Notes: generated by a model not told the origin, from the sequence alone. Numbered from the stretch's first letter, positions 17,615 to 42,776 are shown. The stretch: DNA of 57,849 nucleotides from a virus (IMGVR_UViG_3300004776_000002:1-57849), one strand, 5' to 3'. Translations and numbers: made by a program.

Positions 17615-17801
17615 GAAGACAGACAATTTAGTGTTAGTAGAACGAGTTAATGAAGAAAAGTTTAAACTAAGAACAGCTTATTTAGTTTATAGAAATGGCA
17701 GTCTGATTAAGACGACAGATGGAATTGTGCAATTCTTTTTTGACAAGAAGACAGCAAAAGAATTTATCAGACTGTTGAAGATACAAAAGTGAGATGTCGA
17801 G

Positions 17802-18395
17802 ATGTTATATACAATCGGACACTCTGTGCTTGCAGAGAATGAGTTTGAGAATCTCGTCTCAAAATTAGATATTATTTGGGACGTGCGTTCGCATCCAGGT
17901 TCATCAAAGTATCCAATATATAATAAAGAGAATTTAATTAAGTGGATGAAACGAATCGGCATTCAATATGAGTGGGTGTCTGATTTAGGCGGTTGGCGTG
18001 ACGTTGACTTGTTTGAACGCGAACGATTTCTAAAGTATGGTGTTGACGTCGCTAAGTACGCAAGCATCAAATTTCCAAAACATTATATTGCTAAAACAGT
18101 TCAAAAGAACGATTTCGGTCCACTGTTCTCAAAGACAGAGAAGTTTGACAAGCCAAGTTGGACAAACGTTGGGTTATATGATTATTCCTGGTTTATGACG
18201 TTGAACAAGTTTCTCAAGGCAGTGGATGTATTGATAGCATTGGGAGAGAAAAACAATATTGGAATAATGTGTGCAGAGTTACTATGGTGGAAGTGTCATC
18301 GTAGTATGATTTCTGATTATGTAGCATGGCGCGGTGTAAAAATATATCATTTGCAACCCAAGTTTGTGGAACACTATTCTGGAGATATGGAATGA
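17802..18395 (+). CDS. DUF488 family protein
   Basis: YTIGHS, DVRS.P, LGG, MCAE..WW.CHR motifs. Confidence 0.85.
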   Translation: MLYTIGHSVLAENEFENLVSKLDIIWDVRSHPGSSKYPIYNKENLIKWMKRIGIQYEWVSDLGGWRDVDLFERERFLKYGVDVAKYASIKFPKHYIAKTVQKNDFGPLFSKTEKFDKPSWTNVGLYDYSWFMTLNKFLKAVDVLIALGEKNNIGIMCAELLWWKCHRSMISDYVAWRGVKIYHLQPKFVEHYSGDME

Positions 18396-18874
18396 TTACA
18401 GAGAAGACAGAACGAAACAAACAAATTAAAGAATTATATAGTCGAGGTGATATTTCTACTACAAAATTGGCTGTGCAGTTTGGTCTTTCAGAACCACGCG
18501 TTTGGCGCATTATCAATGGGTACTTGCGCCCGTTGGAAGGTCGCAGACGACGATTCAAAAAAGTAAATGAGTGGAAACGCAATAATAAAAACGTTGAGTT
18601 TTATAAGTTTTTGGCTAAGAAACACACCAGACTAAACAGATTAAAACGTTTGAAAGTTGTTGGTTCTCATACGTGGCAAGAATGGGAAGATTTGAAGAAG
18701 AAATATAATTATTGTTGCGCAATATGTGGCAAACGCGAGCCATTTAAAAATCAATATTATAAGTTTCTAACAGAAGATCACAAGTTGGCGATTGTTAATG
18801 GTGGAACTGATAACATCAATAACATACAGCCAGCATGTTTTCGATGTAATTCGAGTAAACAAGATTTCTATTGA
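18392..18874 (+). CDS. HNH endonuclease with N-terminal HTH
   Basis: CAICG...DHKL...GG...NI..AC..CN..K. ATG 18392 overlaps the upstream stop. Confidence 0.85.
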   Translation: MITEKTERNKQIKELYSRGDISTTKLAVQFGLSEPRVWRIINGYLRPLEGRRRRFKKVNEWKRNNKNVEFYKFLAKKHTRLNRLKRLKVVGSHTWQEWEDLKKKYNYCCAICGKREPFKNQYYKFLTEDHKLAIVNGGTDNINNIQPACFRCNSSKQDFY

Positions 18875-19026
18875 TGTCGAGAGACATACTACTACCGGTA
18901 GAGCAAGACGTTCCAAAAACGTAAGTCCTATTCGAGCCAACCAAACGATACACCAACTTCTATTCTGAAATATATACAACCTGTTGTGCTTAAGACGTTC
19001 CAATAAGTTTGGTGCGTTCCAAATAC

Positions 19027-19055
19027 TTGACACCGAACTCAGAACATGTTATAAT
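19027..19055 (+). promoter_or_regulatory. Sigma70-type promoter
   Basis: TTGACA, 17-nt spacer ending in TGT, TATAAT. Confidence 0.85.
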
Positions 19056-19111
19056 TGTTATGTAAGATTTTGAGATGTCGAGAGTAACACAAACAGAAAG
19101 GAGATGTTGAG

Positions 19112-19258
19112 ATGAAAGAAGCCCCAAAAGAAATGACAATTTGTAATCTCGAGGTATTAGTAATGCCAAACGGAGAAGTTCTTTGTTTAGGTAGAACAGT
19201 CGGTTGGGTTAAGGAACTTGGTAAGTATCTTACTAAGAAGGAAGAGAAACATAAATAA
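19112..19258 (+). CDS. 48-aa protein, paralog of 20931..21086 (not in the ORF track)
   Basis: MKEAPKEMTICNLEVLVMPNGEVLCLGRTVGWVKELGKYLTKKEEKHK with SD AAAGGAG. Confidence 0.75.
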   Translation: MKEAPKEMTICNLEVLVMPNGEVLCLGRTVGWVKELGKYLTKKEEKHK

Positions 19259-19362
19259 AAAATGTGCTAGCGCGTTCTACAAGTTTGTTTATCGCGGCTT
19301 TCGAGATTAAACTGGCATCGAATAATTTCTTATCAATCACCAAATCGAAAGGAGATGTCGAG

Positions 19363-20034
19363 ATGAAAGAAGTTTACAGAATTGCAACGTACGAGATACG
19401 TACTAGTGAATACACCAAAGACGTCGAAGTTGTAAACAGTGATATCAGGGAACTTTCTTTTGTTACTGTCGAAGATGCTAAACTCGTTGCGAAGTTGGCT
19501 AATCTTAAGAGTTTTGGTGTGTTCAAAATCAAGTTTAATAAGGACAATTATGAGTCTATATCAATTAGAGACAACGACAGAGTGTTTGTCACGCCCGATG
19601 TAATCGAGGGAGAGTTGACAGAAGCGAGTCAACGTGAACGTGATAAAAATAAGAAAAACCTTACAATAAAAAACATTAATGCGTTGCCTAAGACTGTTAG
19701 ACTTTATCTTGATAAAGACTTCAACATTACTGCAACGCGTACAGATGCCGATGACAGTTATCGTGGTTTAGATGTTCATTATTCAATGAAGATAATGTTC
19801 AAAGATGAAGAATTAAGTTCGTGGAATAAATACGTCAACGATGCAGGTCAAGTTCTCAAGAAGAAGTTCGTAAAAGATATATATGAAAGAGAATTTGCCG
19901 ACAAGAAGAGTTGGGAAACAGAGCTGAACAATATTCCTGTTGATTATGTTGCGAAGAAGTCGTTGATAATTGTTACTGCAGTCAAGAAGTTGAATGAGAT
20001 GAATAAGAAGATAGACGACGCGAAGTATAAATAA
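19363..20034 (+). CDS. Hypothetical protein
   Basis: Start reassigned to the ATG following GGAGATGTCGAG. Confidence 0.6.
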   Translation: MKEVYRIATYEIRTSEYTKDVEVVNSDIRELSFVTVEDAKLVAKLANLKSFGVFKIKFNKDNYESISIRDNDRVFVTPDVIEGELTEASQRERDKNKKNLTIKNINALPKTVRLYLDKDFNITATRTDADDSYRGLDVHYSMKIMFKDEELSSWNKYVNDAGQVLKKKFVKDIYEREFADKKSWETELNNIPVDYVAKKSLIIVTAVKKLNEMNKKIDDAKYK

Positions 20035-20050
20035 GAAAGAGAGTGTCGAG

Positions 20051-20434
20051 ATGAAAATAACAAAAAAGATTTTGAAGTTGATTTGGTCTCTTGTAGGTTT
20101 GATTTGGACCTTTTTAATGTTCTGTTTGAAAATATTTGTTGAACAAACGCGAGAAGAACGTGAATGGAAATTAACTCATCCAGATACAACTCAATCCCTA
20201 AACACTTCTTTTACGTCATCTATGACGAAGAAAGATTATGAAGTGTCTGAAATCACAAGCCCGACGAACAAACTCTGGGCTAGATTTGAAGAAGATGATA
20301 ATGTTATTAGACTTAGAGGACCAGCAAACGAATATTTAGGTTATTATGACAAACATCAGAACATTACGTGTACAGTAACTGGTAGAATGATTGCACGTGG
20401 AAACATATTAGCTTCACTGATAAAAGAAATATAA
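20051..20434 (+). CDS. Hypothetical membrane-anchored protein
   Basis: N-terminal hydrophobic helix and a motif-led start. Confidence 0.55.
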   Translation: MKITKKILKLIWSLVGLIWTFLMFCLKIFVEQTREEREWKLTHPDTTQSLNTSFTSSMTKKDYEVSEITSPTNKLWARFEEDDNVIRLRGPANEYLGYYDKHQNITCTVTGRMIARGNILASLIKEI

Positions 20435-20455
20435 TAAAAGAAAGGAGATGTCACG

Positions 20456-20917
20456 ATGGGTTTTGGTGTTTATGGTGTCAAGCCAGACAATGCTAAAGGT
20501 GAGTATTTTCGCAACAACTGTTGGTGGTGGAGACCTCTTTGGAACTTCGTGTGTGAAGTGTGTGCAGACATTATTACCGACGAGGAACGCGATTCTGGTC
20601 ATTTCAACAACGGATATTTTATTGACGAGAGGCGTGCATTAACAATATCTGCGCGACTTGTTCATCTTATCGATCAGGGTGAAGTCAAGGCGTACGAGCA
20701 ACGATATGTACAACGTTTAAAAGAACTGCCTGACGAGAAGTGTTGGTTATGCAAAGGTACTGGCAAACGCAAAGATATGATAGTTCCGAACGGATGTAAT
20801 TCGTGCCGTGGGACTGGCAAGATTAGACCGACAGAGTGTAGTTATCCGTTCAGTGAAGACAACGTTAAAGAGTTTGCCAAGTTCTGCAAGTACAGCGGCG
20901 GGTTCGAGATAAATTAA
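20456..20917 (+). CDS. Protein with DnaJ-like CxxCxGxG zinc finger
   Basis: CWLCKGTG and CNSCRGTG. Confidence 0.6.
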   Translation: MGFGVYGVKPDNAKGEYFRNNCWWWRPLWNFVCEVCADIITDEERDSGHFNNGYFIDERRALTISARLVHLIDQGEVKAYEQRYVQRLKELPDEKCWLCKGTGKRKDMIVPNGCNSCRGTGKIRPTECSYPFSEDNVKEFAKFCKYSGGFEIN

Positions 20918-20930
20918 GAAAGGAGTTTCA

Positions 20931-21086
20931 ATGAAAAAAGTTGAAGAAATGACAATTTGTAATCTTGAAGTATTAGTAATGCCGAACGGTGAAGTTCTCT
21001 GTTTAGGTAAGACAATCGGTTGGTTCAAAGACCTACACAAGTATCTAACTAAGAAGGAGAAGACAGATGGCGCACAATCTAAGTAA
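20931..21086 (+). CDS. 51-aa protein, paralog of 19112..19258 (not in the ORF track)
   Basis: MKKVEEMTICNLEVLVMPNGEVLCLGKTIGWFKDLHKYLTKKEKTDGAQSK with SD AAAGGAG. Confidence 0.75.
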   Translation: MKKVEEMTICNLEVLVMPNGEVLCLGKTIGWFKDLHKYLTKKEKTDGAQSK

Positions 21087-22032: not shown

Positions 22033-22303
22033 TATCAGAGTGAAGGATCTATATAAACGGAACCAAGAGCAGTACTTTCGAGTGCAAGGTCCGAAAGAAA
22101 GGAGATGTCGAGATGGGTGCAAGATTAACTTTGAGACAAGGAACTGGGTATGTGTGTCGTATCTGTGGGAAGAAGATTGAGATATATCATAAACAGATTA
22201 CTTTCAAGGGTTGGAATTCTGGTGCAGTTATTCATTCAGATTCGAGAGATTGTGACAGAAAGAAGAGATTGTCAAAACAAACAGGCGGATGTTAATAGAA
22301 TAC

Positions 22304-22332
22304 TTGACAGAGCGTTCAAGGCGTGTTATAAT
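22304..22332 (+). promoter_or_regulatory. Sigma70-type promoter
   Basis: TTGACA, 17-nt spacer ending in TGT, TATAAT. Confidence 0.85.
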
Positions 22333-22384
22333 GTATGTGTGGTTGAGATGTCGAGGAAGTACAACAGTTTGAGGGAGGTGTAGA

Positions 22385-22822
22385 GTGGAGTTAATTCGTG
22401 ACGATGGTGGTCGTGCGTCTGTTGGCTACAAGGGTACCGCAGGCGACTGCGTTATCAGAGCCATCGCAATAGCTACCGAAATTCCCTACCAAAAGGTCTA
22501 CAAAGACTTATTTGCACTAAACAAGAAACAATTAGGGTCAATGCACGGCAAGAGTCCAATGAGAGGCGGTACTCGTATGCGTACGATTAAAAAGTATCTG
22601 TCTTCTATTGGTTGGACTTGGGTATCCACTATGAAAATTGGACAGGGTTGTCGTGTTCATTTAAAGAAAGAAGAATTGCCGACAGGCAATTTGATTGTTC
22701 GTGTTAGTAAACATCTCGTTGCAGTTATTGATGGCGTGATATATGACAATCACGACTGTTCGCGAGATGAGACGCGTTGCGTATATGGATATTTCATCAA
22801 AGCAAAGGAAGTTGGGGAATGA
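22385..22822 (+). CDS. Conserved phage protein, possible Cys/His peptidase-like fold
   Basis: GDCVIRAIAIA ... HLVAVIDG..YD. Confidence 0.45.
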   Translation: MELIRDDGGRASVGYKGTAGDCVIRAIAIATEIPYQKVYKDLFALNKKQLGSMHGKSPMRGGTRMRTIKKYLSSIGWTWVSTMKIGQGCRVHLKKEELPTGNLIVRVSKHLVAVIDGVIYDNHDCSRDETRCVYGYFIKAKEVGE

Positions 22823-22974
22823 AGATGTCGAGACTAAACGTCTGTCGTCATTTGATGATTTTAGGTTGTTATATTGTAGTTAATTTATTAGTAGCGAGTT
22901 TAATATTTTATTATATTATAAAGTTAATGATTTATATTGATAAATTATTGATTAAACTCTAAGGAGGTGTCGAG

Positions 22975-23973
22975 ATGATTAAAGACGGAGAGGTCGTTGA
23001 GGTTCAAGGTTCGGCTGCCGAACCATATAAAGTAAAGAGAACAGGCGATGTCATTTCGTGTTCGTGTCCAGCGTGGCGCAATCAGTCACTTCCCATCAAC
23101 AAACGTACCTGCAAACATATAAGAAAGATAGAAGGCGACGAGGCTGAGTCCGCACGTATTGGCGGCTCTCTGACTATGAGAGCGCCTAAGACCAAGGGCA
23201 AAGAGCAGGCAGTCCCGCCAGCACTACTGTTGGCTAACAAGTGGACTTCTAACATTGACCCGACTGGTTGGTGGATGTCAGAGAAGTTGGACGGGATACG
23301 TGCATTGTGGAATGGAAAAGAATTCATATCCCGATTGGGTAACAAGTTCTATGCACCTGAGTGGTTCACAGAAGGCATGGGTAACATTCGACTCGATGGA
23401 GAATTGTGGATTGGGCGCGGTAAGTTTCAAGAAACGATGTCTGTCGTGCGTTCGCAGGGTTTAGTCAAAGAGTGGAGACAGGTTAAGTATTTAGTGTTTG
23501 ATATGCCAGATTCACCGCACAAATTCGAGACGCGTTGGCGAGCCATGTATAAGTTATTGCTTCCTAAACATTGTGAGATAGTAAAACAAACGCAATGTAC
23601 TGGTGTGAAACATCTGAAAGAGTGTCTCAAACTTGCGGAAAGTCTCGGTGGAGAGGGTATAATGTTGCGCCAGTCGGGTTCTCTCTACGACGGGCGACGT
23701 TCGAGTACGTTGCTCAAAGTAAAGAATTTCTTTGACGATGAGGCAACAATCATCAGTTATGAGGCAGGCAAGGGTAGGCATTTTGGTCGTCTTGGTGGGT
23801 ATGAGTGCAGATTAAAGAATGGAAAGATTTTTAATGTTGGATCTGGTCTGACTGACAAGGAACGCGACAATCCGTTGAAGATAGGCACTAAGATAACGTT
23901 TGCATATCAAGAGTTATCTAATGACGGCATTCCTCGATTTCCAACTTTTGTGGGTGAGGCAATAGATAAATAA
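22975..23973 (+). CDS. lig: ATP-dependent DNA ligase with N-terminal SWIM zinc finger
   Basis: CSCPAW...CKH SWIM motif; EKLDG, LDGEL, VFD, EGIML, LLKVK, PRFP ligase motifs. Confidence 0.9.
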   Translation: MIKDGEVVEVQGSAAEPYKVKRTGDVISCSCPAWRNQSLPINKRTCKHIRKIEGDEAESARIGGSLTMRAPKTKGKEQAVPPALLLANKWTSNIDPTGWWMSEKLDGIRALWNGKEFISRLGNKFYAPEWFTEGMGNIRLDGELWIGRGKFQETMSVVRSQGLVKEWRQVKYLVFDMPDSPHKFETRWRAMYKLLLPKHCEIVKQTQCTGVKHLKECLKLAESLGGEGIMLRQSGSLYDGRRSSTLLKVKNFFDDEATIISYEAGKGRHFGRLGGYECRLKNGKIFNVGSGLTDKERDNPLKIGTKITFAYQELSNDGIPRFPTFVGEAIDK

Positions 23974-24562: not shown

Positions 24563-24806
24563 CTGAAAGGAGGAATACAATGATAAAGTTGAAACTTTGT
24601 AAATTCAGCGAAACAGAATATCTTATTGTTATGTTAGATAATGCTGGCGGAAAATTCAACGCAGAAGTTCTTGACTGTGTTTCGACACTAAAGCACGGGC
24701 ACAACAAACTTAATGATTATTTATTCTTACAGAATAAAAGTAAGCCAGAATTGGCACAACTGATGAAGATGAGAGATGTTGTCAATAAAGAATGAGGAGG
24801 TGTCGA

Positions 24807-25493
24807 GTGAATGAATTAATAAATATAAAGTGTAAAGTATGTCATCAAGAGCGCGCCGTTAACACAGCCAATCGTAAACTGTTTGAGTCACAGATAGTGC
24901 AAGAGAACTACGTGTGCATGTTGTGCGACGGTAAAGTAAAGAAGATGATGATTTCTCTGATTTGTGCTAAGTGCAAGCACCCGTTCAAGACCAAGATTTT
25001 AGCAGTTAATAAAGATAAGTACGGTTCGATGTGGGAATGTCCTGCGTGTATGAGCAATGCTATAGCGCAACCAAAAGTGACAGAGAAGAAGAACTGCATA
25101 GAGTTGAATTGCGCAGACTGTAAAGTAGAACGCGGAGTATGTGTTCATCCTGAATTGAATTGCACTCTCTCTAAAAATTTTCCGCGTTTCGGTAATGGAG
25201 ACTTGTTCTATCTGAAAGATGGTGCTACTATTCTGTCAGTTCACGCGATAGATGAATCTAGACCAGACATTCACTGTTTCGAGTACACTATTCTATATAG
25301 AAACAAATATGCGTTGTCTCCGCGCAATCACGTTATTATCAGACAACGTTTAGGCTCTAAGAAGAGTTTCATGACCAACGTCATTGTTTATAAATATAAC
25401 GCGCATGAACATAAGTTCAACGTTGTGTTTGATGAGAAGTTTGACAAGGGCAAGGATTGGATAGTACCGATGCGAGATTTTCTATTAAAGTAA
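24807..25493 (+). CDS. Cys-rich multi-zinc-finger hypothetical protein
   Basis: Several CxxC pairs. GTG start after GGAGGTGTCGA. Confidence 0.55.
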   Translation: MNELINIKCKVCHQERAVNTANRKLFESQIVQENYVCMLCDGKVKKMMISLICAKCKHPFKTKILAVNKDKYGSMWECPACMSNAIAQPKVTEKKNCIELNCADCKVERGVCVHPELNCTLSKNFPRFGNGDLFYLKDGATILSVHAIDESRPDIHCFEYTILYRNKYALSPRNHVIIRQRLGSKKSFMTNVIVYKYNAHEHKFNVVFDEKFDKGKDWIVPMRDFLLK

Positions 25494-26548: not shown

Positions 26549-26839
26549 ATGTACGGGAATTTGAAGTTGGCAATTTGGAAATACAAGTTGGAACCAGTAG
26601 ATGAACAAATATTAGCAGTGTCTTATCCTGCCAAAGTTTTGTCAGTTGGTGAACAACGTGGTGATATAGTACTTTATGCGCTTGTGGCACCAGAGTCATT
26701 ACACGGACAGACTAACGTTACGGTGCGTATTCATGGCACAGGTCATCAAGTGGCAAATGATATTTCAAATTTTGATTTTGTCGGTACTGTTAAGCTGATG
26801 GATGGTGCATTAATGTTTCACGTGTTCGTTGGAAAATGA
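26549..26839 (+). CDS. Conserved phage hypothetical protein
   Basis: IWKY...VLSV..Q...GTGH...GTV...HVF pattern. Confidence 0.55.
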   Translation: MYGNLKLAIWKYKLEPVDEQILAVSYPAKVLSVGEQRGDIVLYALVAPESLHGQTNVTVRIHGTGHQVANDISNFDFVGTVKLMDGALMFHVFVGK

Positions 26840-26841
26840 GA

Positions 26842-26888
26842 TATAATCTATCTAATATCTTGACAGCAACGCAAACCTGTGATATAAT
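26842..26888 (+). promoter_or_regulatory. Sigma70-type promoter with upstream TATAATCTAT box
   Basis: TTGACA 26860, 17-nt spacer, TATAAT 26883. Confidence 0.85.
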
Positions 26889-26916
26889 AAATGTCTGTGA
26901 AGGGAGGTGACGAGAG

Positions 26917-27087
26917 ATGTGCAAGTTTAAAGTAGGTAGTCGAGTTGAGTTTCTTGGTGGTACGTATGGCAGTAAAGGTATGAAGGGTAAAGTAGTTTCA
27001 GTGCCTGATGACATCGTTGAAGTGAATGTCGAAGGTCAGATTTATCAGAAACATGTAAAGAATTTAAAGTTAGTCAAAACCAAATAA
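26917..27087 (+). CDS. 56-aa KOW/SH3-like protein (not in the ORF track)
   Basis: FKVGSRVEFLGG...GMKGKVV...V.V pattern with GGGAGGTG SD. Confidence 0.55.
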   Translation: MCKFKVGSRVEFLGGTYGSKGMKGKVVSVPDDIVEVNVEGQIYQKHVKNLKLVKTK

Positions 27088-27099
27088 GGAGATGTCGAG

Positions 27100-27501
27100 A
27101 TGTCAAAAACTGATATTGTTGCAAATCTGTCTGATGTCGTAAAGACTCAAGTTCTGACTGATAAGACGCAAATAACCGAAGTATTGAAGGACAACAAGAT
27201 TATTGTTTCAATTTTAAAGGGTCCTCAGGTGCTTGTCAAGGTAATCAAAGTGTCTAAAGTTGCGCCGAAACAGCGCGTTCTGTCGAATGAGACAGTTGAA
27301 GAACTAAAGAACGCGAAAAAGCTTTTGAAGAACAATGTTGATTTGATTTATCTAATCACGTTGTTGGCCAAGGTCAAAGACTTATTGTCCAATCTGGATG
27401 TCAAGAATCTGAATGTCGAGGGCAGTAAGTTGATAAAGAGTGTTGTCGAGGATGCAGTATCAAAGTTGAGAATAGTTGACGAGAAGTTGATGTTGAAATA
27501 A
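27100..27501 (+). CDS. Hypothetical protein
   Basis: Motif-led start, 133 aa. Confidence 0.55.
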   Translation: MSKTDIVANLSDVVKTQVLTDKTQITEVLKDNKIIVSILKGPQVLVKVIKVSKVAPKQRVLSNETVEELKNAKKLLKNNVDLIYLITLLAKVKDLLSNLDVKNLNVEGSKLIKSVVEDAVSKLRIVDEKLMLK

Positions 27502-27513
27502 GGGAGGTGTCGA

Positions 27514-27909
27514 GTGAAGAAGCGCAGTTCAACGAAACTGGACGAGTTGCGTGAAGTTTTGGAACGTGGCGGAGTCCATAAGACGAGTGAGTTAGCAAAC
27601 GAGTTAGACGTATCAAATTTAAAAGTGAATGCACTAGTGCATGATTACAGAGCGAAGTTTCTCAATGGTGAGAACCTGCCGTACATATACTCCGCGATGG
27701 GTGGTGGATATACTATGGACGACTCTGGTGAACATGTAGCATGGGAAAGCAAGAAACGTATCAGTATGGGCTATAGCGTTATTGCTAACGGGGTGTTCGT
27801 GTTCAAAAGATGTAGGAAGATAGCAGCTAAAGAGTTTGCTGCTCTTAACATCGCTTATAGACCACAAATGCTCACTGTCAAACAGTTGTTAGCTAAAGAT
27901 GTCGAATAA
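27514..27909 (+). CDS. Putative winged-HTH DNA-binding protein
   Basis: TSELANELDVSNLKV...GGGY. Confidence 0.5.
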   Translation: MKKRSSTKLDELREVLERGGVHKTSELANELDVSNLKVNALVHDYRAKFLNGENLPYIYSAMGGGYTMDDSGEHVAWESKKRISMGYSVIANGVFVFKRCRKIAAKEFAALNIAYRPQMLTVKQLLAKDVE

Positions 27910-28035
27910 GAGATGTCGAAGAAGAATAAACATAATCATTTCTATTGTGATGTCCAATGATTGTCTGTTCTTGCGGTAAGAAAAAGAAAATACCGATGTT
28001 AAATCCGAGAGTTATTAATCAAAGGAGATGTCGAG

Positions 28036-28425
28036 ATGGCAAGACATAATTATTCGAAATGCGAACTCAATTTTCTGAACAAGGCAGTAGAACAAAACTT
28101 GACTACTCATGATGTAGCAGATGAATTTAGAAAAAGATTCGAGTGTACCGATGTTTCTAATGGTGCAATTGGCCTAGCGTTGCGTAGATGCCGAAAGAAA
28201 CTCGGTAAGACTGAGAGTGTCGTTCCAATAATCAAACGAGGCAAGAATCCCCTCAAGATATTACAACGAAGCAATTATCTTGTTCTTGTTTTTGATAGAG
28301 TTCAAGGGTTCGATACCGAAGAGGAAGTATCTGAATTCTTGAAGAAATCTCAGATATTAGGTGGAGTGAAGTTGTTTAAAGCGGTACCTATCGAAATCAA
28401 GTATGATATCTCGATAGGCAGATAA
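28036..28425 (+). CDS. Hypothetical protein
   Basis: Motif-led start, basic N-terminal helical region. Confidence 0.5.
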   Translation: MARHNYSKCELNFLNKAVEQNLTTHDVADEFRKRFECTDVSNGAIGLALRRCRKKLGKTESVVPIIKRGKNPLKILQRSNYLVLVFDRVQGFDTEEEVSEFLKKSQILGGVKLFKAVPIEIKYDISIGR

Positions 28426-29453: not shown

Positions 29454-29462
29454 ATTGAATAA

Positions 29463-29711
29463 TGAGCTGTGGCGTGATGAACACGTTGCTAATCCGTTCT
29501 TGCCAATATCGAAGCGCACTTCTGAAGGGAGTTGCCTAGACAATTAGCTATTGCCCTCCAAGAACGCTACGACGAAAGTTATGGGCGTATTCAGAAGTTC
29601 GAGAATTGGAAGCTACAGGAAACGGTCAAAGTCAAACAATAAGGATATGCGGAAGCCGAGTGCCATATTGGGCATAAATACGCATAGCAGGTAGAAATCC
29701 TGCCAGCTCTT
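29463..29711 (+). ncRNA. About 250-nt structured RNA with tRNA-like acceptor, D and T arms
   Basis: GAGCTG/CAGCTC, CGTG-ATGAA-CACG, GCAGG-TAGAAAT-CCTGC, and nested internal helices. Confidence 0.6.
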
Positions 29712-29722
29712 AACTAATACAG

Positions 29723-35073: not shown

Positions 35074-35345
35074 GTGTATTGACTGTACGAACTTTAAGAC
35101 AAGAGTAATTACTCAAATGATGATTGACAAGCGTTTTCGCAAGGCTTCGCGTTCGATGTTGGATGAGTTGGGAATTAAACTTGGGTTTCCAATTAATGCT
35201 GTGATGTTGAGACGTTTAGATAAAGAATCAGAAATTGTTATTTATTATTGCATTAATGGTTTAATGAATAGAGAGGTTTACATTGCAACCAGTCACAATA
35301 ATCTGATTAAGTTGTCCCCTAAAGATGGTTATTGTAAGTGTTATC

Positions 35346-35392
35346 TATAATCTATGAAATATATTGACAAAACGAACGAGGCATGATATAAT
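35346..35392 (+). promoter_or_regulatory. Sigma70-type promoter with upstream TATAATCTAT box
   Basis: TTGACA 35364, 17-nt spacer, TATAAT 35387. Confidence 0.85.
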
Positions 35393-35418
35393 GTATAGTC
35401 AATTAGGGAGATGTCGAG

Positions 35419-38400
35419 ATGTCTGAATTAAAGTTAACTGACGGTGTCGGCTTAGCTGAATGTAATGAATGTCCGTTGAACAATTCATCGCAAGTCTTAT
35501 CTCATTTAGTCAATAAAGAAATAGTTGATATTTTGGTAATCGGTCAATGTTATTCGTCAGATACAGAAGTGTTGACTGATGTTGGATGGAAGTTGTTTAA
35601 AGATTTGAATAGAACAGAACGCATTGCTACTCTAAATCCACAAAATAATGTAATTTCATATCATCAACCAATTAAATATTTAGAGTTTAATTATGAAGGT
35701 AAGATGTACAACATTCGTAGTAATTACATCGATTTGTTAGTTACTCCTGATCATAATGTTCTTGTCAATAGACGCGCATTTCCGAGTCAAGAGATAAAAA
35801 GTAGAACTGAATTTGTGAAAGCAAGAGATTTTAACTTTCATACGCATCGAATATTGAGAAATGGTGTGTGGCTTGGTCAATCTGAATTGAAATTTACGTT
35901 GCCATCAATAGATATTGCTTATGCAGTATTTGGTAAAAATAAACGTATTGACGTTGTCAATGAAATCGATATCAATATTGATGATTGGTTAGCTTTTTTT
36001 GGGTTCTGGATTGCTGAGGGTTGGACATATAGGAGAAAACATAAAAATTATTCAAATTCATTTGCGTACTATGTTGGTGTAGGTCAGAATGACAATAAAA
36101 AATGCGATGAATTTGAAGTCTTACTTAAGCGACTTCCATTTAAATATAAGAAAAAAATTGACAGGGCTGGGTTTGTTAGATTTTTTATATATAATAAACA
36201 ATTGTATAGTTATCTTGAACAGTTTGGTAAATGTTATAACAAACATATACCAAATTGGATAAAGTTTCTGTCAACTGATAAATTAAAGATATTGTTTGAC
36301 TGGATGATGAAAGGCGACGGAAATGTTCATCGAGGATGTTTGTTTTACACAACCACAAGTAAACAGTTAGCTGATGATGTACAGGAAATTGCTTTAAAAT
36401 TAGGTTTATCTGCTATTGTGCGTTTACGTAAACGTGATTCTAAGTATATAAAAGATAATAAATGTTACGATTCGTCTAAATGGCGATCAGTTTATCAAAT
36501 ATCAATAATAAGAAAGGTTAGTCCGTCTTCATTTAAGAAAGCACCGGTGTTAATAGACTATTTTGATAAAGTTTATTGTGTTGAAGTTCCAAATCACGTA
36601 ATTTACGTTCGTAGAAATGGCAGAGCCTGTTGGTGTGGAAATTCACCTGGTTTAGACGAAGTGAAGCAGGGCAGACCGTTTATTGGGCGTTCTGGTAATC
36701 TAATCAATCCGGTGTTGAACAAGTATTCGTATGGCGTTGCTTACATCAATGTAATCAATTGTCGCCCGTTAGACGCAGACACGCAGAAAGACAGACAACC
36801 GCTTACAGCAGAAGTAAAGTGTTGCAGACCACGTTTCGATTCAGACTTCGATTACGTATTAGTCAATTATCATCCGAAGATAATTGTAGTACTTGGCGCC
36901 TTCGCGAAGAAAGAGATGCAACGATTGATGAAGACGAGAGAGTTCAAGATGCCGATTTACTTTACCGAACATCCTGCTTACATTCTCCGCAACGAACACC
37001 TGAAACCGCGATACATTACTGGATTGCATAATAATCTAAAATCTGTGTTTGGAAACGACGAATCAGAGATAGTTAATTCGTTTATATCATACACTGACGA
37101 CGTGCGTCTTCAATTCATGGAGGATGTTAACTCGTCAATACGCGTTGGTGTTGATATTGAAACTAACAGTCTTAATATGTTTGACCCGACGTTTGTTATT
37201 GGTACGGTAGCTGTCAGTTGCGATAAGTGTACATATTTCTTTGATGGTAGACAGAAAGATATTCGAGAGTATGACGCGTTGATAGACGTGTTGAAGAACG
37301 AGAGGGTGCAGAAAATATTTGCCGATATTATGTTCGACGTGGTGTCGTTTGAACAGTACGATATCAAGGTGAACAATTACACTGATTTGTTTCCGTTGGC
37401 GTACATTCACGACAACACGTTTCAGGAATATTCGTTGGCAGCAATAACTATGCGTTATCTACCTGAGTTGGCTGGCTATAAGGCGAAATTTCAGTCAACT
37501 GTATCTCCCGATAAATATCTCGAGGCTCCTACTTCAGAGTTGCGTATATATAATTCAATGGATGCATACGCCACCAAAACTCTATATAACTATATATACG
37601 AACGCATTGAGCCGAATTCCAAGAGGATATTCGAGAGAATAACGTTGAGAATGTTGCCAATGATTGTGATGATGAAAGTCGTTGGTATGAAGGTTGATAT
37701 AGACTTGTTGGAACAATACGAGAAATTGTTTCAAAATCGATTTGTAGAGTTGTCTAAGTTTTTCACTGATAAGTGGGGCATTACGAACATTAACTCTACT
37801 CTGCAGATTAAGAAATGGTTGTTTGAGACTCTTAAATTGAAACCAGTAAAGTTCAACGAGATTACAGCAACGCAGAGAGCTAAGGGAGCTACTAAGGGAA
37901 GTCCGTCTACTGATAAAGAGGTGCTTGAGATATATGCCGCAGAAGTACCTGAGACGAGAGCACTTTATGAGGCACGCAGAGTAGCTAACGTTCTTAACTA
38001 CTTTCTTGCGTCAATCAAAAATAACACTGATTTTAACGACATCATTCATCCGAATCTAAAACATTATGGCATCTCCAGTTATCGTCTGTCTTGTTCGTCT
38101 CCTAATCTTCAAGGCATACCGCGAGATGAGACTAAGATTGAGTTTCTCGATAAATATCCGTTGCGGCGTCTATTCAGAGCAAGATACTCTGATTCCAGTA
38201 TCTTAGAGTTTGACTTCTCTCAGCAGGAAGTTCGCATAGTTGCTGAGTTGGCTCGCGATGAGAAATTGTTGGATGCGTTTGCTAAGGGGAAAGACGTTCA
38301 CGCATTCGTTGGTTCTATTGTATTTGACAAACCGATTAATGAGATAACTAAACTCGAAAGGCAGATAGCTAAGGGTTGCGTGTTTGGTGCAATATTCGGC

Positions 38401-38901
38401 GCGTCTTATAAAGAAATGTCAATCAGACTGCATATACCAGAGAAACAGGCACGTGCTTATCTAACCAAATTCTTTGCGTTATTCAGTAGCATAGACAGTT
38501 TCATCAAGAGACAACATCGTATAGTTTTAGAGAGAGGAGTAATAACTACAATACTTGGTAGACCGCGCAGATTTATTATGAGTTCTGATAATATTGAGGA
38601 GGTGAAACGAGAAGCAGGAAATCACGTCATTCAAGCCGTTGCGGTTGATATCACTTTTCTTTCTCTGATTAGAATTTACGAGAAACTGCGAACTGATAAT
38701 ATGTTAGGAACATACGTGATTCCAATGAATACAGTACACGACTCGATATTGTTTGACGTGCGTCAGTCTGCAGTAGAATATGCAAATACAGAGATAACAG
38801 CTATTATGTCTGGTGTTCCGAAAGCGTTAGGTTTTAATGTAGTATATCCAGTAGAGGTCAAACAGGGCCGTCGCTGGGATGAAAAGATGAAAGGGGTGTA
38901 A
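35419..38901 (+). CDS. polA: Family A DNA polymerase fused to an N-terminal family-4 uracil-DNA glycosylase, with intein
   Basis: UDG: CxxC, GQ|SPG..E...G.PF.G.SG, N...CRP, HPAY. Exonuclease: DIET, FD, Y...D. Polymerase motifs DFSQQE, R..AK...FG, HDS. Confidence 0.9.
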   Translation: MSELKLTDGVGLAECNECPLNNSSQVLSHLVNKEIVDILVIGQCYSSDTEVLTDVGWKLFKDLNRTERIATLNPQNNVISYHQPIKYLEFNYEGKMYNIRSNYIDLLVTPDHNVLVNRRAFPSQEIKSRTEFVKARDFNFHTHRILRNGVWLGQSELKFTLPSIDIAYAVFGKNKRIDVVNEIDINIDDWLAFFGFWIAEGWTYRRKHKNYSNSFAYYVGVGQNDNKKCDEFEVLLKRLPFKYKKKIDRAGFVRFFIYNKQLYSYLEQFGKCYNKHIPNWIKFLSTDKLKILFDWMMKGDGNVHRGCLFYTTTSKQLADDVQEIALKLGLSAIVRLRKRDSKYIKDNKCYDSSKWRSVYQISIIRKVSPSSFKKAPVLIDYFDKVYCVEVPNHVIYVRRNGRACWCGNSPGLDEVKQGRPFIGRSGNLINPVLNKYSYGVAYINVINCRPLDADTQKDRQPLTAEVKCCRPRFDSDFDYVLVNYHPKIIVVLGAFAKKEMQRLMKTREFKMPIYFTEHPAYILRNEHLKPRYITGLHNNLKSVFGNDESEIVNSFISYTDDVRLQFMEDVNSSIRVGVDIETNSLNMFDPTFVIGTVAVSCDKCTYFFDGRQKDIREYDALIDVLKNERVQKIFADIMFDVVSFEQYDIKVNNYTDLFPLAYIHDNTFQEYSLAAITMRYLPELAGYKAKFQSTVSPDKYLEAPTSELRIYNSMDAYATKTLYNYIYERIEPNSKRIFERITLRMLPMIVMMKVVGMKVDIDLLEQYEKLFQNRFVELSKFFTDKWGITNINSTLQIKKWLFETLKLKPVKFNEITATQRAKGATKGSPSTDKEVLEIYAAEVPETRALYEARRVANVLNYFLASIKNNTDFNDIIHPNLKHYGISSYRLSCSSPNLQGIPRDETKIEFLDKYPLRRLFRARYSDSSILEFDFSQQEVRIVAELARDEKLLDAFAKGKDVHAFVGSIVFDKPINEITKLERQIAKGCVFGAIFGASYKEMSIRLHIPEKQARAYLTKFFALFSSIDSFIKRQHRIVLERGVITTILGRPRRFIMSSDNIEEVKREAGNHVIQAVAVDITFLSLIRIYEKLRTDNMLGTYVIPMNTVHDSILFDVRQSAVEYANTEITAIMSGVPKALGFNVVYPVEVKQGRRWDEKMKGV
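35548..36642 (+). mobile_element. Intein with LAGLIDADG endonuclease (365 aa)
   Basis: Q|CYSSDTEVLT..GW ... VTPDH ... FFGFWIAEG ... MMKGDG ... VYCVEVP ... WCGN|S. Confidence 0.9.
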
Positions 38902-38903: not shown

Positions 38904-39935
38904 ATGCAAGAAGGCAAGCTGAATTTTCTTATTGGTATTTCGTTTGGGAGTGAAGGTAAAGGGAACGTGGCTGCGTATTTGGGAGAGCGAAACAAACTTG
39001 ACTTGTGTATATCGAATAACAGTCCCAATGCGGGACACTGTTTCAAAGAGAATGGCGGTGTTGGAGAATCACATATAATTAAGATGTTGCCAGTTTCTGG
39101 AATCGTGAACAAAGAGTCAAACATACTCTTAGGTTCAGGTTCTGTGATTAATTTAGATAGATTGCTCGAGGAGATCAAGACGTACGACGTCGGTAATCGT
39201 CTACTTATCTCCGCTACTGCTCCAGTTGTCAACAAAGAGTGCATTGCATACGAAGAAGAACATCTGCGTTATATATCTTCCACGTTTCAGGGAACAGGCG
39301 CCGCGATAGGTTTCAAAGCAATGCGTTCACCCAAGATTAAATTGGTGAAGGATTATCCAGAATTAGATAAATACTGTCACAAGCATATAGCCGACATCAT
39401 ATTGAATAGAATTGATAAATGTGGCTATACAGGTCTGGTCGAGATTTGTCAGGGATACGGTTTATCAGTTGATAGCGAGATGTATCCGTTTACTACATCT
39501 CGTCCAGTGAACGTTGGGCAGGCTCTTGCATATCTGGATGTTCCTCCAAGCATTGTTGGCGATGTCATTGGCATTGCTAGGACATACATTATCAGAGTTG
39601 GTAATGTTCCCGATGGCTATTCTGGTGATACGTTCTTCGACTCAAAAGAATTGTCGTGGGATGAGATGTCTAAGAAGTTAGGTTACAATGTGTTGGAAAA
39701 AACTACCGTCACAAAAAGAGTACGGAGAGTATTCTCTTTCTCGAAATATTTATTTGAACAAGCAGTAAGACGAAATGGAGTAAACGTATTGTTTCTTACG
39801 TTTACTGACTACTTGATTGGCCGAGAACGTCAAGAGTTTATTGATTATCTGACGTCGTCGAAATTCTCATTCAAAGAGATTTATTTTGTGAATGGGTACG
39901 GAAACTACGATTCTATGATAGAGAAGATAAAATGA
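38904..39935 (+). CDS. purZ: PurZ/PurZ0-like adenylosuccinate synthetase homolog
   Basis: FGSEGKG (Ser at the PurA catalytic Asp), SPNAGH, QGYGLS, YPFTTSR, TYIIRVG, TTVTKR.RR, LTFTDY. Compact 343-aa length. Confidence 0.7.
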   Translation: MQEGKLNFLIGISFGSEGKGNVAAYLGERNKLDLCISNNSPNAGHCFKENGGVGESHIIKMLPVSGIVNKESNILLGSGSVINLDRLLEEIKTYDVGNRLLISATAPVVNKECIAYEEEHLRYISSTFQGTGAAIGFKAMRSPKIKLVKDYPELDKYCHKHIADIILNRIDKCGYTGLVEICQGYGLSVDSEMYPFTTSRPVNVGQALAYLDVPPSIVGDVIGIARTYIIRVGNVPDGYSGDTFFDSKELSWDEMSKKLGYNVLEKTTVTKRVRRVFSFSKYLFEQAVRRNGVNVLFLTFTDYLIGRERQEFIDYLTSSKFSFKEIYFVNGYGNYDSMIEKIK

Positions 39936-40345
39936 GTAACTATCTGTATCACAAGGAATACCGTCGAAGAAATGCGTCAAACATAGCGAAAATGAAACAC
40001 CAGTGGTATTTAAGAAACAAGAAACACGTCAGAGAGTACCAAGATTCTTATAAAGAAGAACATCCTGAGAAGGTGCGTAACTACAAATTAGATTGGAACA
40101 GAAAGAACAAAGATAAGAAAAGAGCGAGTGCTAGAAAATATTATGAGAATAACACAGAAAAGATGAGACATTTTCATCCTGTAAGTCGAAGTAGTGAATA
40201 TGAAGGTAAAGATATCAATGAACGTACTAATCTTGGTGTTGCTCATGGTGATAGAAGCAAAGAGAAATGCAATAACATAAAGAAAAATAAGACTTTAGAT
40301 GAGTGGTTTAAATTTGTTGAGAAGGAGATTAAACATGAATCTTAG
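39932..40345 (+). CDS. Degenerate HNH endonuclease
   Basis: Basic helical repeats, then HFHPVSR...N...NL...CN..K.NK. The first CxxC pair is missing. Confidence 0.55.
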   Translation: MSNYLYHKEYRRRNASNIAKMKHQWYLRNKKHVREYQDSYKEEHPEKVRNYKLDWNRKNKDKKRASARKYYENNTEKMRHFHPVSRSSEYEGKDINERTNLGVAHGDRSKEKCNNIKKNKTLDEWFKFVEKEIKHES

Positions 40346-42038
40346 TGATAATGCAATTAAGGTTCTCCAGAAACGATATTTGACTCGTGATCAGAAGGGT
40401 AACATTATAGAGAGTCCAGAACAAATGTTTACTCGAGTTGCCCGTACCATTGCTGGTGCAGAACGTGATGAGTCCGCTATCGAGTATGAGGAGAAGTTCT
40501 ACAAAATAATGACGAATCTGGAATTTCTGCCAAATACTCCAACATTAATCAACGCAGGAAAAGATTTGGGACAACTATCGGCATGTTTTGTTCTTCCTAT
40601 CGATGATAGTATGGATAGTATATTTACCACACTTCGAGATGCCGCTCTCGTTCAGAAGTCTGGTGGCGGGTGCGGGTTTAATTTCTCGAATATACGACCT
40701 ATCAATGATACAGTGAAGTCTACGAATAAATGTGCAGGTGGACCCATTCAGTTTATTTACATATTTGATAGAGCTTTGGAAGTAATTAGTCAGGGCGGAG
40801 TGCGTCATGGTGCAAACATGGGTTGTCTAAGAGTTGATCATCCGGATATACTGGAGTTTATCAAATTGAAAGAGAAAGAGGGAACGATACCTAATTTCAA
40901 TATATCGGTTGGCATTACAGATGAGTTTATGTCAGCTGTCAGAGGGTGCCGTAAACATCAATTAATAAATCCGCGTACTGGCGCAGTGACGAAGGAAGTT
41001 AGCGCTGTCGAATTGTTCAACTCGATAGTAGAGCATGCGTGGAATAATGGCGAGCCTGGAGTGTTGTTTCTCGATGAGATTAACAGGTGCAACGTTGTTC
41101 CTCATGTTGGATCTATTGAGGCTACTAACCCCTGTGGAGAACAACCCCTTTTAGGATATGAGTCTTGCAATCTCGGATCTATCAATCTTGGTAGGCTCAT
41201 TAAAGCTAAGACAATTGATTTTGAGAGATTAGCGTATTTAGTAAAGTTGGCTGTTAGATTTCTCGACAACGTAATTGATATGAATAGATATCCAATATCA
41301 CAGATTGAAACGAAAACCAAACAGACGCGCAAGATAGGTCTTGGTGTGATGGGATTCGCAGACTTGTTGATTAAGTTGGATATCAAATACGATACCGATG
41401 AGGCAGTGCAGATGGCTCACAAGGTGATGGGTTTTATTCAGAAACACGCAACCGAGGCATCCACAGAGTTAGCTGAAACCCGTGGGGTGTTTCCCGCGTA
41501 TCGCGGTAGCGTGTGGCACATGGAACGCGGTGTTCGTATGCGTAATGCTGCTGTCACTACGGTGGCTCCCACAGGAACGTTGTCTATTATAGCTAATTGT
41601 TCCTCAGGTATTGAACCATATTACTCAAAGACTATAAAGAAACATATACTAAGTACTATTCTTGAGGAAGAAGTAGAGTTTGCGAAGGAAGAGAGTTTCA
41701 TCACTGCTCAGGATATCACTCCTGACTGGCATATCAAAATTCAGGCTGCGTTTCAGACGCACGTTGATTCTGCAGTGTCTAAGACGATAAACTTTTCTAA
41801 TTCTGCGACGAAAGAGGACGTGAAGAGAGCGTACATGACTGCGTATAAGATGAAATGCAAAGGTCTGACTATCTATCGCGATAATTCACGCGAGTCGCAG
41901 GTTCTATATGCAGGAAAGACAGAATCGCCTAAGATGGAACTGCAGAAATGTCCGTCATGTGGTGCAGAGTTAGTCAACGAATCTGGATGTCAGTCGTGTG
42001 CAGCAAAATGCGGATGGTCAGCTTGTCGTATCTCTTGA
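40335..42038 (+). CDS. nrdJ: Class II (B12-dependent) ribonucleotide reductase
   Basis: PNTPT, LSACFV, TNPCGE, CNLGS, APTGT, YRD.SR and C-terminal Cys cluster. No beta-subunit gene nearby. Confidence 0.9.
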   Translation: MNLSDNAIKVLQKRYLTRDQKGNIIESPEQMFTRVARTIAGAERDESAIEYEEKFYKIMTNLEFLPNTPTLINAGKDLGQLSACFVLPIDDSMDSIFTTLRDAALVQKSGGGCGFNFSNIRPINDTVKSTNKCAGGPIQFIYIFDRALEVISQGGVRHGANMGCLRVDHPDILEFIKLKEKEGTIPNFNISVGITDEFMSAVRGCRKHQLINPRTGAVTKEVSAVELFNSIVEHAWNNGEPGVLFLDEINRCNVVPHVGSIEATNPCGEQPLLGYESCNLGSINLGRLIKAKTIDFERLAYLVKLAVRFLDNVIDMNRYPISQIETKTKQTRKIGLGVMGFADLLIKLDIKYDTDEAVQMAHKVMGFIQKHATEASTELAETRGVFPAYRGSVWHMERGVRMRNAAVTTVAPTGTLSIIANCSSGIEPYYSKTIKKHILSTILEEEVEFAKEESFITAQDITPDWHIKIQAAFQTHVDSAVSKTINFSNSATKEDVKRAYMTAYKMKCKGLTIYRDNSRESQVLYAGKTESPKMELQKCPSCGAELVNESGCQSCAAKCGWSACRIS

Positions 42039-42085
42039 AATTATGATTAGTAATGAGCAAAAGAAAAATCTTAGTAAAGAGTAGA

Positions 42086-42132
42086 TATAATCTATGAGAT
42101 ATATTGACGGAGTGAATGGAGCATGATATAAT
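42086..42132 (+). promoter_or_regulatory. Sigma70-type promoter with upstream TATAATCTAT box
   Basis: TTGACG 42104, 17-nt spacer, TATAAT 42127. Confidence 0.8.
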
Positions 42133-42290
42133 GAAATATAAACGAGATGTCGTGAAACGAGTAGTTCGTCATTACCGAGGTGTCTGTCCTGAATGTCAAA
42201 TGTTAATCAACTTAATAAAAATAGATAAAAATAGTTGGTCAAGCTGTCACTGCGGTTACGTATTTACTATAACAAAAAAGGAGATGTCGA

Positions 42291-42776
42291 ATGAATCAAA
42301 TTGACGAAATTCTAAACAAAATATCGTTGGCATTTGGGGTCGAGAATCTAGAAATTGTCTTTCCAGAGGACTTGATGGTTGATTTGACGTTGTTTAAGAT
42401 TGCGAATATCGATGCTTCGCGTCTGGACGATGAATTGATTTCGTCTGGAAAACTGTATATTCTTTTTGAGACTATTCTGGCTCACGTGTCCGACAAATAT
42501 AGCAAACAGGACGCCAAGGTCAAACAACTCGAGGCAGAGTTAGCTCTCAAGTATGAGAAGAGTTTGAGTGCATCTGGAGACAGAGTTTCTGACAAGAAGA
42601 TTGAGAAACTCGTTGACGCCGACAAAGATTTCATTGACGCTATTGACAAGAAGTTAGAGTATAAGAATCTTGTCATTACGTTTACTAACATATTGACTTC
42701 GTTAGATAAACGACACGATATGTTGATACAGTTGTCTGCGAAACGAAACAAAGAGATTGGCGGTAACTTAGGATAA
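42291..42776 (+). CDS. UvsY-like recombination mediator
   Basis: Helical 161-aa protein ending L.KR..ML.QL...R, located near the recombinase gene. Confidence 0.55.
   Translation: MNQIDEILNKISLAFGVENLEIVFPEDLMVDLTLFKIANIDASRLDDELISSGKLYILFETILAHVSDKYSKQDAKVKQLEAELALKYEKSLSASGDRVSDKKIEKLVDADKDFIDAIDKKLEYKNLVITFTNILTSLDKRHDMLIQLSAKRNKEIGGNLG

Follow-up and report, generated by a model that had tools for sequence, protein, structure and literature searches.

IMGVR_UViG_3300004776_000002 is a 57,849-bp viral contig (hereafter the window, meaning the whole stretch of DNA analyzed), and it carries a short repeat that fixes the entire ribosome-binding region of a subset of its genes. The repeat, (AA)GGAG-R-TGTCGAG-ATG, is a start-associated sequence (SAS) in which a normal Shine-Dalgarno (SD) core is joined to an invariant, unusually G+C-rich spacer that reaches the start codon. 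It directly precedes 15 of 92 gene starts and recurs at seven other sites, in leaders and at gene ends, where the SD part and the start codon are missing and the remainder of the motif is kept. Based on these sequence features, it is quite possible, though we would not call it probable, that the motif serves as an operator in the mRNA, through which a sequence-specific trans-acting factor would co-regulate an early/replication regulon.

A conserved block in register with 15 start codons

The enrichment analysis for which an earlier note on this DNA had called shows the motif to be both over-represented and concentrated at gene starts. The exact 12-mer GGAGRTGTCGAG occurs eight times, all on the + strand, against an expectation of 0.00 (100 shuffles), and every copy stands at a start (19363, 22113, 22975, 24807, 27100, 27514, 28036, and 35419). 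Allowing up to two mismatches yields 26 matches (5.8 expected). TGTCGAG is found 23 times, 21 of them on the + strand (5.8 expected), and RTGTCGAR 26 times, with 24 matches on the + strand and 2 on the - strand (8.1 expected on both strands together). Six RTGTCGAR matches lie in a non-coding, non-start context, which by a rough estimate looks far above expectation for ~4 kb of non-coding DNA. With the tail-fiber repeats set aside, no other 10- or 12-mer of the genome is repeated as often as those of the motif, so the motif also surfaces without prior choice. We conclude that it is a real, strongly non-random regulatory repeat.

All 14 starts listed in the earlier note carry the motif or a close variant directly upstream, and the start-less copies given there (19071/19072, 22344/22345, ~18870, and 27895-27920) are present as well. 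That inventory was accurate as far as it went; it overlooked the start copy at 26903-26916, which adds g46 (start at 26917) as the fifteenth carrier, one copy at a gene end (22821-22832), one in a leader (42143-42154), and, before 6556, a sequence that resembles the motif weakly (GGAGGTGATGAGT-ATG). Its observation that the motif is bounded holds, with none at gene starts before 17.8 kb or after 42.3 kb. In total there are ~22 asymmetric copies in a single orientation, 15 at starts and 7 elsewhere. The start copies are the following:

17790-17804, + strand: g27 (DUF488), TGAGATGTCGAG-ATG; the TGA in it terminates the upstream open reading frame (ORF)
19100-19114, + strand: g29 (48 aa), GGAGATGTTGAG-ATG
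19351-19365, + strand: g30, exact motif and ATG
20039-20053, + strand: g31, GAGAGTGTCGAG-ATG; exact core, altered SD part
20444-20458, + strand: g32, GGAGATGTCACG-ATG
22101-22115, + strand: g35 (60 aa, Cys-rich), exact motif and ATG
22374-22387, + strand: g36, GGAGGTGTAGA-GTG, offset -1
22963-22977, + strand: g37 (ATP-dependent DNA ligase), exact motif and ATG
24796-24809, + strand: g41, GGAGGTGTCGA-GTG, offset -1
26903-26919, + strand: g46, variant copy, GGAGGTGACGAGAG-ATG, offset +2; 14 nt past the -10 box of the promoter at 26860-26888
27088-27102, + strand: g47, exact motif and ATG
27503-27516, + strand: g48, GGAGGTGTCGA-GTG, offset -1
28024-28038, + strand: g49, exact motif and ATG
35407-35421, + strand: g60 (family A DNA polymerase, with intein), exact motif and ATG; 14 nt past the -10 box of the promoter at 35364-35392
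42280-42293, + strand: g65 (weakly UvsY-like), GGAGATGTCGA-ATG, offset -1

Measured against the start codon, the end of the block is offset by 0 nt in 10 copies, by -1 in four, and by +2 in one (g46). In the four -1 cases (GTG starts at 22385, 24807, and 27514 and the ATG at 42291), the last motif base overlaps the start. The register is fixed also in the eight motif genes that have 68-237 nt of non-coding space upstream. One mismatch is present at four starts (17802, TGAG...; 19112, ..TTGAG; 22385, ..TAGAG; 42291, ..TCGAA) and two at 20456 (..TCACG); at 20051, the core GTGTCGAG is exact and the SD part reads GAGAG. Except in g30 and g41, the start used is the first possible one of its ORF. 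The GTG start of g41 is backed by the N terminus of its orthologue in the nearest relative (G001, described below), and the start chosen for g30 by an orthologue alignment.

Across the consensus AA-GGAG-R-TGTCGAG-start, a block of 15-17 nt, information content per column rises abruptly two bases before GGAG and drops right after the start codon, while the sequences on either side are mutually unrelated. Such sharp edges and unrelated flanks indicate a conserved site, not the leftover of duplicated segments. Of the 15 start copies, 13 contain GGAG itself (14 when counted by column), and 7-8 nt separate the SD core from the start, which is normal SD spacing; together with the fixed register, this shows that the block works as, or on, a translation initiation region. 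Position 5 is A in nine start copies and G in six, and never a pyrimidine. By direct reading, block and start codon form a direct repeat, GAGATG-TC-GAGATG, with a period of 8 nt.

In core and spacing, then, the block is an ordinary SD site; its spacer, by contrast, is not unconstrained. G+C makes up 54% of the 7 nt preceding the start in the 15 motif genes, versus 31% in the 76 others. This 7-nt spacer is identical in eight motif genes and differs by one or two changes in the rest, whereas the spacers of the 76 non-motif genes, 43 of which have a recognizable SD core, are nearly all distinct (one 7-mer occurs twice). The upstream A's of the block extend complementarity to ...CCUCCUUU, which we take to be the canonical 16S rRNA 3' end, and an A at position 5 interrupts GGAGG pairing. 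TGTCGAG presumably has no complement in this end, so the earlier claim that it does not extend anti-SD pairing holds for the canonical sequence, from which that of the host may differ. Leaders and initiation regions showed no significant secondary structure relative to shuffles (z -0.7 to 0.0). Since the motif RNA is not predicted to fold, any reader would meet a linear single strand.

Carriers are clustered: among the 92 genes and proteins listed for the window, 13 of the 23 genes g27-g49 (17.8-28.5 kb) have the motif, versus 2 of the 69 others (Fisher p = 4e-8). The window is one contig of ~38% G+C, a fragment of a larger tailed phage, with all convincing genes on the + strand. It begins inside a collagen-repeat tail fiber gene, which is followed by a block of sugar/methyl transferases and epimerases (4.5-16 kb), by many small genes with no assigned function (17-28 kb), and by a replication/nucleotide block. 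Matches to PHROGs and Pfam identify in the latter a gp32-like SSB, a primase, a SNF2 helicase with an intein, a DnaB-like helicase, a family A polymerase with a LAGLIDADG intein, a PurZ-like adenylosuccinate synthetase, ribonucleotide reductase, a UvsX-like recombinase, a MazZ-like dATP/dGTP diphosphohydrolase, and SbcCD. No tail-fiber or sugar-enzyme gene has the motif at its start, in a window that covers only part of the genome.

The LAGLIDADG intein of polymerase g60 (35419-38901) lies at ~aa 44-406 and is missing from the G001 orthologue; the SNF2-type helicase g55 (31191-33248) has an intein splicing domain in its N-terminal part that is also absent in G001. The PurZ-like synthetase gene (38904-39935) adjoins the polymerase gene, with the MazZ-like gene (46863-47249) near, and these family matches suggest a 2-aminoadenine (Z) genome. 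The 269-nt gap between SSB and primase (29454-29722) folds somewhat better than shuffles (minimum free energy -74.1 kcal/mol, z -2.25) and matched no Rfam family.

Copies without a start codon and nearby promoters

Another seven copies lack GGAG as well as a start codon and yet keep GATGTCGA(G/A). Three are in leaders and four at gene ends:

19071-19082, + strand: leader copy, TGAGATGTCGAG; 15 nt past the -10 box of the class B promoter at 19027-19055 and 29 nt upstream of the g29 copy
22344-22355, + strand: leader copy, TGAGATGTCGAG; 11 nt past the -10 box of the class B promoter at 22304-22332 and 30 nt upstream of the g36 copy
42143-42154, + strand: leader copy, ambiguous, CGAGATGTCGTG; 10 nt past the -10 box of the promoter at 42104-42132; the GTG with which it ends (42152) may be the start codon of g64, a small Zn-ribbon ORF
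18870-18881, + strand: gene-end copy, ATTGATGTCGAG; overlaps the TGA stop of the HNH gene g28, with no start after it
22821-22832, + strand: gene-end copy, GAAGATGTCGAG; immediately 3' of the g36 stop, with ACT where a start would be
27895-27920, + strand: a tandem pair of gene-end copies, AAAGATGTCGAA-TA-AGAGATGTCGAA, around the stop codon of g48

Each gene-end site (g28, g36, and g48) is followed by 126-237 nt of non-coding DNA. The leader copies are associated with promoters, nine of which were identified on the + strand as TTGACA-N17-TATAAT with at most one mismatch and a TGn extended -10. Seven of these belong to a 53-nt family (class A) and two to a second class (class B):

11977-12029, 16609-16661, 16751-16803, 26838-26890, 35342-35394, 42082-42134, and 50768-50820: the seven class A copies
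19022-19055, + strand: class B promoter, AATACTTGACA-N17-TATAAT with TGn
22299-22332, + strand: second class B promoter, a paralogue of the first

At five of the nine, a motif copy begins 10-15 nt past the -10 box; at g46 and polymerase g60, this promoter-proximal copy is the ribosome-binding site (RBS) itself.

The two class B modules are particularly informative. When aligned, they prove to be diverged paralogues in which only the -35 region, the extended -10, the leader copy, and the RBS copy are conserved. The promoter spacer, the initial transcribed region, and the stretch between both motif copies have drifted. The leader copy, TTGAGATGTCGAG, is identical at 13 of 13 positions, with the RBS copy 29 or 30 nt downstream. 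This conservation is the best single evidence that the non-SD core may be under selection of its own.

The same leaders (19075-19110 and 22348-22383) contain a short frame: the ATG within the leader copy opens 11 codons, and in both cases the frame ends at the one off-consensus base of the RBS copy (C to T giving TGA in one, C to A giving TAG in the other). We did not adopt an upstream-ORF reading of the class B leaders, which have no usable SD and represent a single duplicated module.

In class A promoters, a conserved upstream element (TATAATCTAT...ATATATTGACA) is joined to a consensus -35, which a spacer of 17 nt separates from a -10 of the form TGnTATAAT; the upstream part may itself be a further promoter, an operator, or an UP element. 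A search of viral contigs with the class A element returned one match and no close relative. Two class A promoters (16631 and 16773) precede a stretch of ~700 nt (16660-17440) with only TTG-started, SD-less ORFs, which may be a non-coding RNA or mis-called small genes. A reported joint from 35377 to 17000 proved to be an artifact of the repeated promoter element, its loose end lying at 16724-16748 and adjoining the copy at 16751. No hairpin or terminator is shared among the intergenic gaps, and an Rfam search of the sequence found no family.

Relatives and possible readers of the block

No close relative of this phage was found in the collections searched. Megablast of the 17-29 kb region against GenBank phages gave no match, the best tblastn match to the polymerase was 27% identical, and a polymerase-based search for related loci in viral contigs found none. 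Searching metagenome contigs with ligase g37 returned 472 relatives at 49-54% identity; the exact motif occurs just once (L054) among the 80 of these loci that were examined, which argues that the ligase loci are not kin of the phage. Searches with SSB and DUF932 recovered only G001/L088 as syntenic kin. G001 (loci L117-L121), an IMG/VR record of 97,890 bp rated complete and the sole relative found (~60% amino acid identity), shares 23 of the 92 proteins, as well as a replication block that is syntenic and 53-80% identical. Eleven of the 15 motif genes have no homologue there, and the orthologues of the other four (g30, g41, g60, and g65) use ordinary SDs, each with a spacer of its own. G001 avoids four palindromic tetramers completely, having zero TCGA, CATG, CTAG, and GATC against 160-280 expected of each, and because it has no TCGA it cannot hold the motif. 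The window is depleted only in GATC (79 vs 206 expected), CTAG (60 vs 116), and GGCC (23 vs 59).

Within the window, the paralogues g29 (19112-19258) and g33 (20931-21086) are 83% identical over 125 nt, and each lies upstream of a larger gene. The motif is present only at g29, and the two differ exactly in the spacer (ATGTTGAG vs TTTCA), indicating that the motif was not inherited along with the gene. Together with the ordinary RBSs of G001, this suggests that the block has spread, or has been maintained, in this lineage independently of gene ancestry. In viral contigs, the 17-mer was found at seven loci, in a single copy each, and was not recurrent in other contigs. With R at the variable position, 185,579 genomes contain at least 120 loci, and the 80 matches listed have one copy each, scattered over unrelated phyla, which corresponds to chance level.

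Phage DNA is present in six freshwater metagenome runs, none of them RNA. Contigs from four runs showed no gene gain, loss, or rearrangement at any motif. The sole difference at motifs is an extra G after 27093 in the g47 copy (GGAGATGGTCGAG), found in the contigs of run X3 and part of those of X4; it reflects either natural variation or an error of assembly.

Conservation beyond rRNA pairing, an atypical composition, persistence in start-less copies, and the predicted lack of folding in the RNA lead us to favor an RNA operator, and we infer that the motif is read as RNA by a trans-acting factor, with either repression or activation as the outcome. We speculate that the non-SD core, (G)AGAUGUCGAG, acts as a single-stranded mRNA operator and that its reader is most likely a phage-encoded RNA-binding protein or endoribonuclease. 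By binding or cutting at the spacer, such a factor would control 30S access and could thereby co-regulate ~15 early/replication genes, including those for the ligase, the DNA polymerase, and the UvsY-like protein. SD-less leader copies, 29-30 nt upstream of an RBS copy, would be auxiliary sites that promote cooperative binding or control mRNA ends, and the gene-end copies may likewise be auxiliary. The proposal of a shared operator for a trans-acting factor, made in the earlier note, is thus partly borne out, by the core kept in seven SD-less, start-less copies, the 13 of 13 identity of the leader copy, and the fixed register.

A tentative lead for the factor is g46 (26917-27087, + strand), a stand-alone 56-aa protein whose own start is of the motif type and which heads a series of four motif genes. 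A single-sequence structure model (mean pLDDT 84; two of five models confident) predicts a KOW/SH3-like barrel. Its best structural matches are the KOW domains of Spt5 and NusG, ribosomal L24, and the OapB chain 7k9b (Foldseek E ~0.01, TM 0.7-0.86). In Pfam, g46 has a sub-threshold KOW match only (E 0.021), and its Atlas scores are all below 0.9. The KOW domain formerly read at 26917 is therefore recovered at the level of the modeled fold, with the sequence match remaining sub-threshold. The KTSC domain noted at 46640 is confirmed in g72 (Pfam E 7e-23); we found no tie between g72 and the motif, and it is a candidate binder at most. We raise as a tentative and somewhat doubtful proposal that the block is the operator of a phage-encoded single-stranded-RNA-binding protein, with g46 as the lead candidate, in an autoregulated translational regulon with dual-site leaders.

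Several points weigh against an mRNA operator with a dedicated factor. Searches of PHROGs and Pfam revealed no RegA, RegB, or other known translational regulator among the 92 proteins. The copies downstream of promoters and the one-orientation intergenic pattern fit a DNA operator or stoperator equally well. Non-start copies were found by core similarity, and their appearance, with the core kept and the edges lost, is partly a matter of ascertainment. Moreover, the two class B modules count as one evolutionary event, not two, and the 3' end of the host 16S rRNA may differ from the canonical one. Finally, the motif is absent from the sole relative found, so that conservation across phages, the strongest argument for the SAS of cluster K mycobacteriophages (see below), is not demonstrable here.

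An alternative that we consider unlikely is that no factor is involved and the block is a "super" initiation region, with a strong SD and a spacer/E-site context that are optimal in the host and are read by the ribosome alone. The best such region would have been copied to many genes by selection or short-tract gene conversion. GGAG and A-rich upstream bases at normal spacing in nearly all start copies are as expected of such a region, as is the use of first possible starts by all carriers save g30 and g41, and a fixed register is a need of any element read by ribosomes. Left unexplained are the seven copies without GGAG or start, one of them conserved at 13 of 13 positions in diverged leaders. 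Nor does this reading fit the A+T-rich, nearly all different spacers that serve the 76 other genes, including the 43 with an SD core, the A at position 5 that breaks GGAGG pairing in 9 of 15 start copies, or the ordinary RBSs of the G001 orthologues.

Less likely again, in our judgment, is a DNA operator of the stoperator type, at which a phage transcription regulator would block initiation near promoters and elongation at intergenic sites, with the overlap with RBSs being secondary. The asymmetric copies in one orientation, the five extended -10 promoters with a copy just downstream, and the location of other copies in intergenic spaces or at gene ends match the operator/stoperator pattern as described for L5-type phages (PMC9283540). 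In addition, g48 and g49, which lie in the motif-rich cluster, encode small proteins that look helix-turn-helix-like by eye and have no family match. However, a roadblock needs no register, and the register here is kept within 1 nt in 14 of 15 start copies despite long gaps. No repressor-like family and no integrase were found among the 92 proteins of this incomplete fragment, and the internal repeat GAGATG-TC-GAGATG has a period of 8 nt, which is not helical.

We consider it improbable that the block is a recombination junction or scar, at which single-gene cassettes and promoter modules are exchanged and imprecise joins leave start-less copies. This would account for the 11 motif genes that have no homologue in G001, for the difference between paralogues g29 and g33 at the block, and for the start-less copies, with non-coding DNA beyond them, that stand at the ends of g36, g48, and the mobile-type HNH gene g28. 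On the other hand, 12-15 bp is short for homologous exchange, the block stands at three conserved core genes (g41, polymerase g60, and g65), and the metagenome contigs differ at the copies by just one inserted nucleotide. Scars should also decay evenly, yet the leader copy is as conserved as the promoter hexamers.

Other ideas were set aside. A phage RNA polymerase promoter is argued against by the SD and its spacing, and the motif does not fit what we take to be the consensus of CsrA- or TRAP-type sites. For an antisense or small-RNA reader, the best + strand complement (45052-45067, CUGGACAUCUCCUAAU, -21.7 kcal/mol) is 2.4 kcal/mol better than the next but lies inside the conserved IMPDH/GMP-reductase-like gene g69, and a promoter-like site on the - strand (27239-27211) has no TGn, upstream element, or terminator; both are most likely due to chance. 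Sequence alone cannot decide whether the motif acts as an operator in RNA, as one in DNA, or as an element read only by the ribosome, and we reserve the probability left over from the four readings for an explanation not considered here.

Comparison with known phage repeats

The closest described kind of element is the SAS of cluster K mycobacteriophages, with which the block may share the combination of an SD core and a non-pairing conserved part (here GGAG and TGTCGAG, judged against what we take to be the canonical 16S 3' end, which may not be that of the host). The cluster K element is described as an asymmetric repeat, 13 bp long, that occupies the RBS position in 11-19 non-structural genes (Pope et al. 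2011, PMC3203893). It is reported to be conserved beyond 16S rRNA pairing, and a host or phage product was proposed as its reader (PMC3203893); publications from 2024-2025 still call its function ill-defined (PMC11373665, PMC12699233). Like it, the present block is a short asymmetric repeat with 10-20 copies in one orientation (15 start copies here, and 7 others), and, insofar as a fragment can show this, it is confined to non-structural or early genes. Both occupy the RBS position a few bases from starts, more tightly here (offsets of 0, -1, or +2) than in cluster K, for which 3-9 bp is given (PMC3203893).

There are also differences. The sequences are unrelated (that of cluster K is GGGATAGGAGCCC), and only the present block abuts or overlaps the start codon and so fixes the whole spacer. 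SD-less copies in leaders and at gene ends distinguish it further. About half of the cluster K elements are described as having an upstream ESAS, composed of 17-bp inverted repeats, which in Adephagia is said to harbor promoters. In the present genome no block upstream of the motif is conserved and no such inverted repeat is seen, though five copies begin 10-15 nt past consensus promoters. The cluster K SAS is conserved across subclusters, whereas the block is absent from G001, and it belongs to a low-GC freshwater phage with another type of host. Given its different sequence and its absence from G001, we regard the block, on the available comparisons, as an analogue of the cluster K SAS and not a homologue or member by descent. 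What is new is a variant SAS-type element with a fixed spacer, SD-less copies, and no inverted-repeat ESAS.

Repeats of this kind have been described elsewhere, in Microbacterium cluster EF phages (PMC7302621) and, as a 26-bp repeat, in the Citrobacter phage Mordin (PMC4611695). According to short published descriptions, on which our comparison is based, these are likewise over-conserved at the RBS position, upstream of 8-10 genes of unknown function, and have other sequences and lengths. Such independent cases indicate that over-conserved RBS repeats recur in unrelated phages. A literature search for SAS-type elements and stoperators found no such element for a low-GC or freshwater phage.

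Operators and stoperators of cluster A (L5) phages are DNA sites for the monomeric helix-turn-helix repressor of temperate phages (PMC9283540). Similar to the copies described here, they are asymmetric, point in the direction of transcription, and lie both at promoters and between genes. They differ in that the accounts available to us describe no fixed register with start codons, and in that no repressor, integrase, or lysogeny gene is found among the 92 proteins of our incomplete fragment.

In phage T4, early mRNAs are cleaved by RegB at GGAG within their SDs and are repressed in translation by RegA, whose sites are A+U-rich and poorly conserved. A proposed likeness is that initiation regions of early/replication genes would be targeted by one phage-encoded factor at the RNA level. 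The comparison with RegA/RegB made in the earlier note has its differences: no relative of either was found among the 92 proteins, RegB needs GGAG and none of the seven non-start copies has it, and the block is long, G+C-rich, and nearly invariant, in contrast to RegA sites.

Over-conserved RBS regions are known from several unrelated phage groups, and papers from 2024-2025 continue to describe their role as unknown. The case presented here, from a phage known only from freshwater metagenomes, is unusually clean, with the whole spacer from SD to AUG fixed and a single variable position that accepts only purines, and its SD-less copies set the "extra" part apart from the ribosome-binding part. 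The block offers a short, well-defined RNA (or DNA) probe with clear mutants for distinguishing the ribosome alone from a dedicated factor. Should a g46-type regulon prove true, it would provide the first mechanism for start-associated sequences, which have been without an explanation since 2011.

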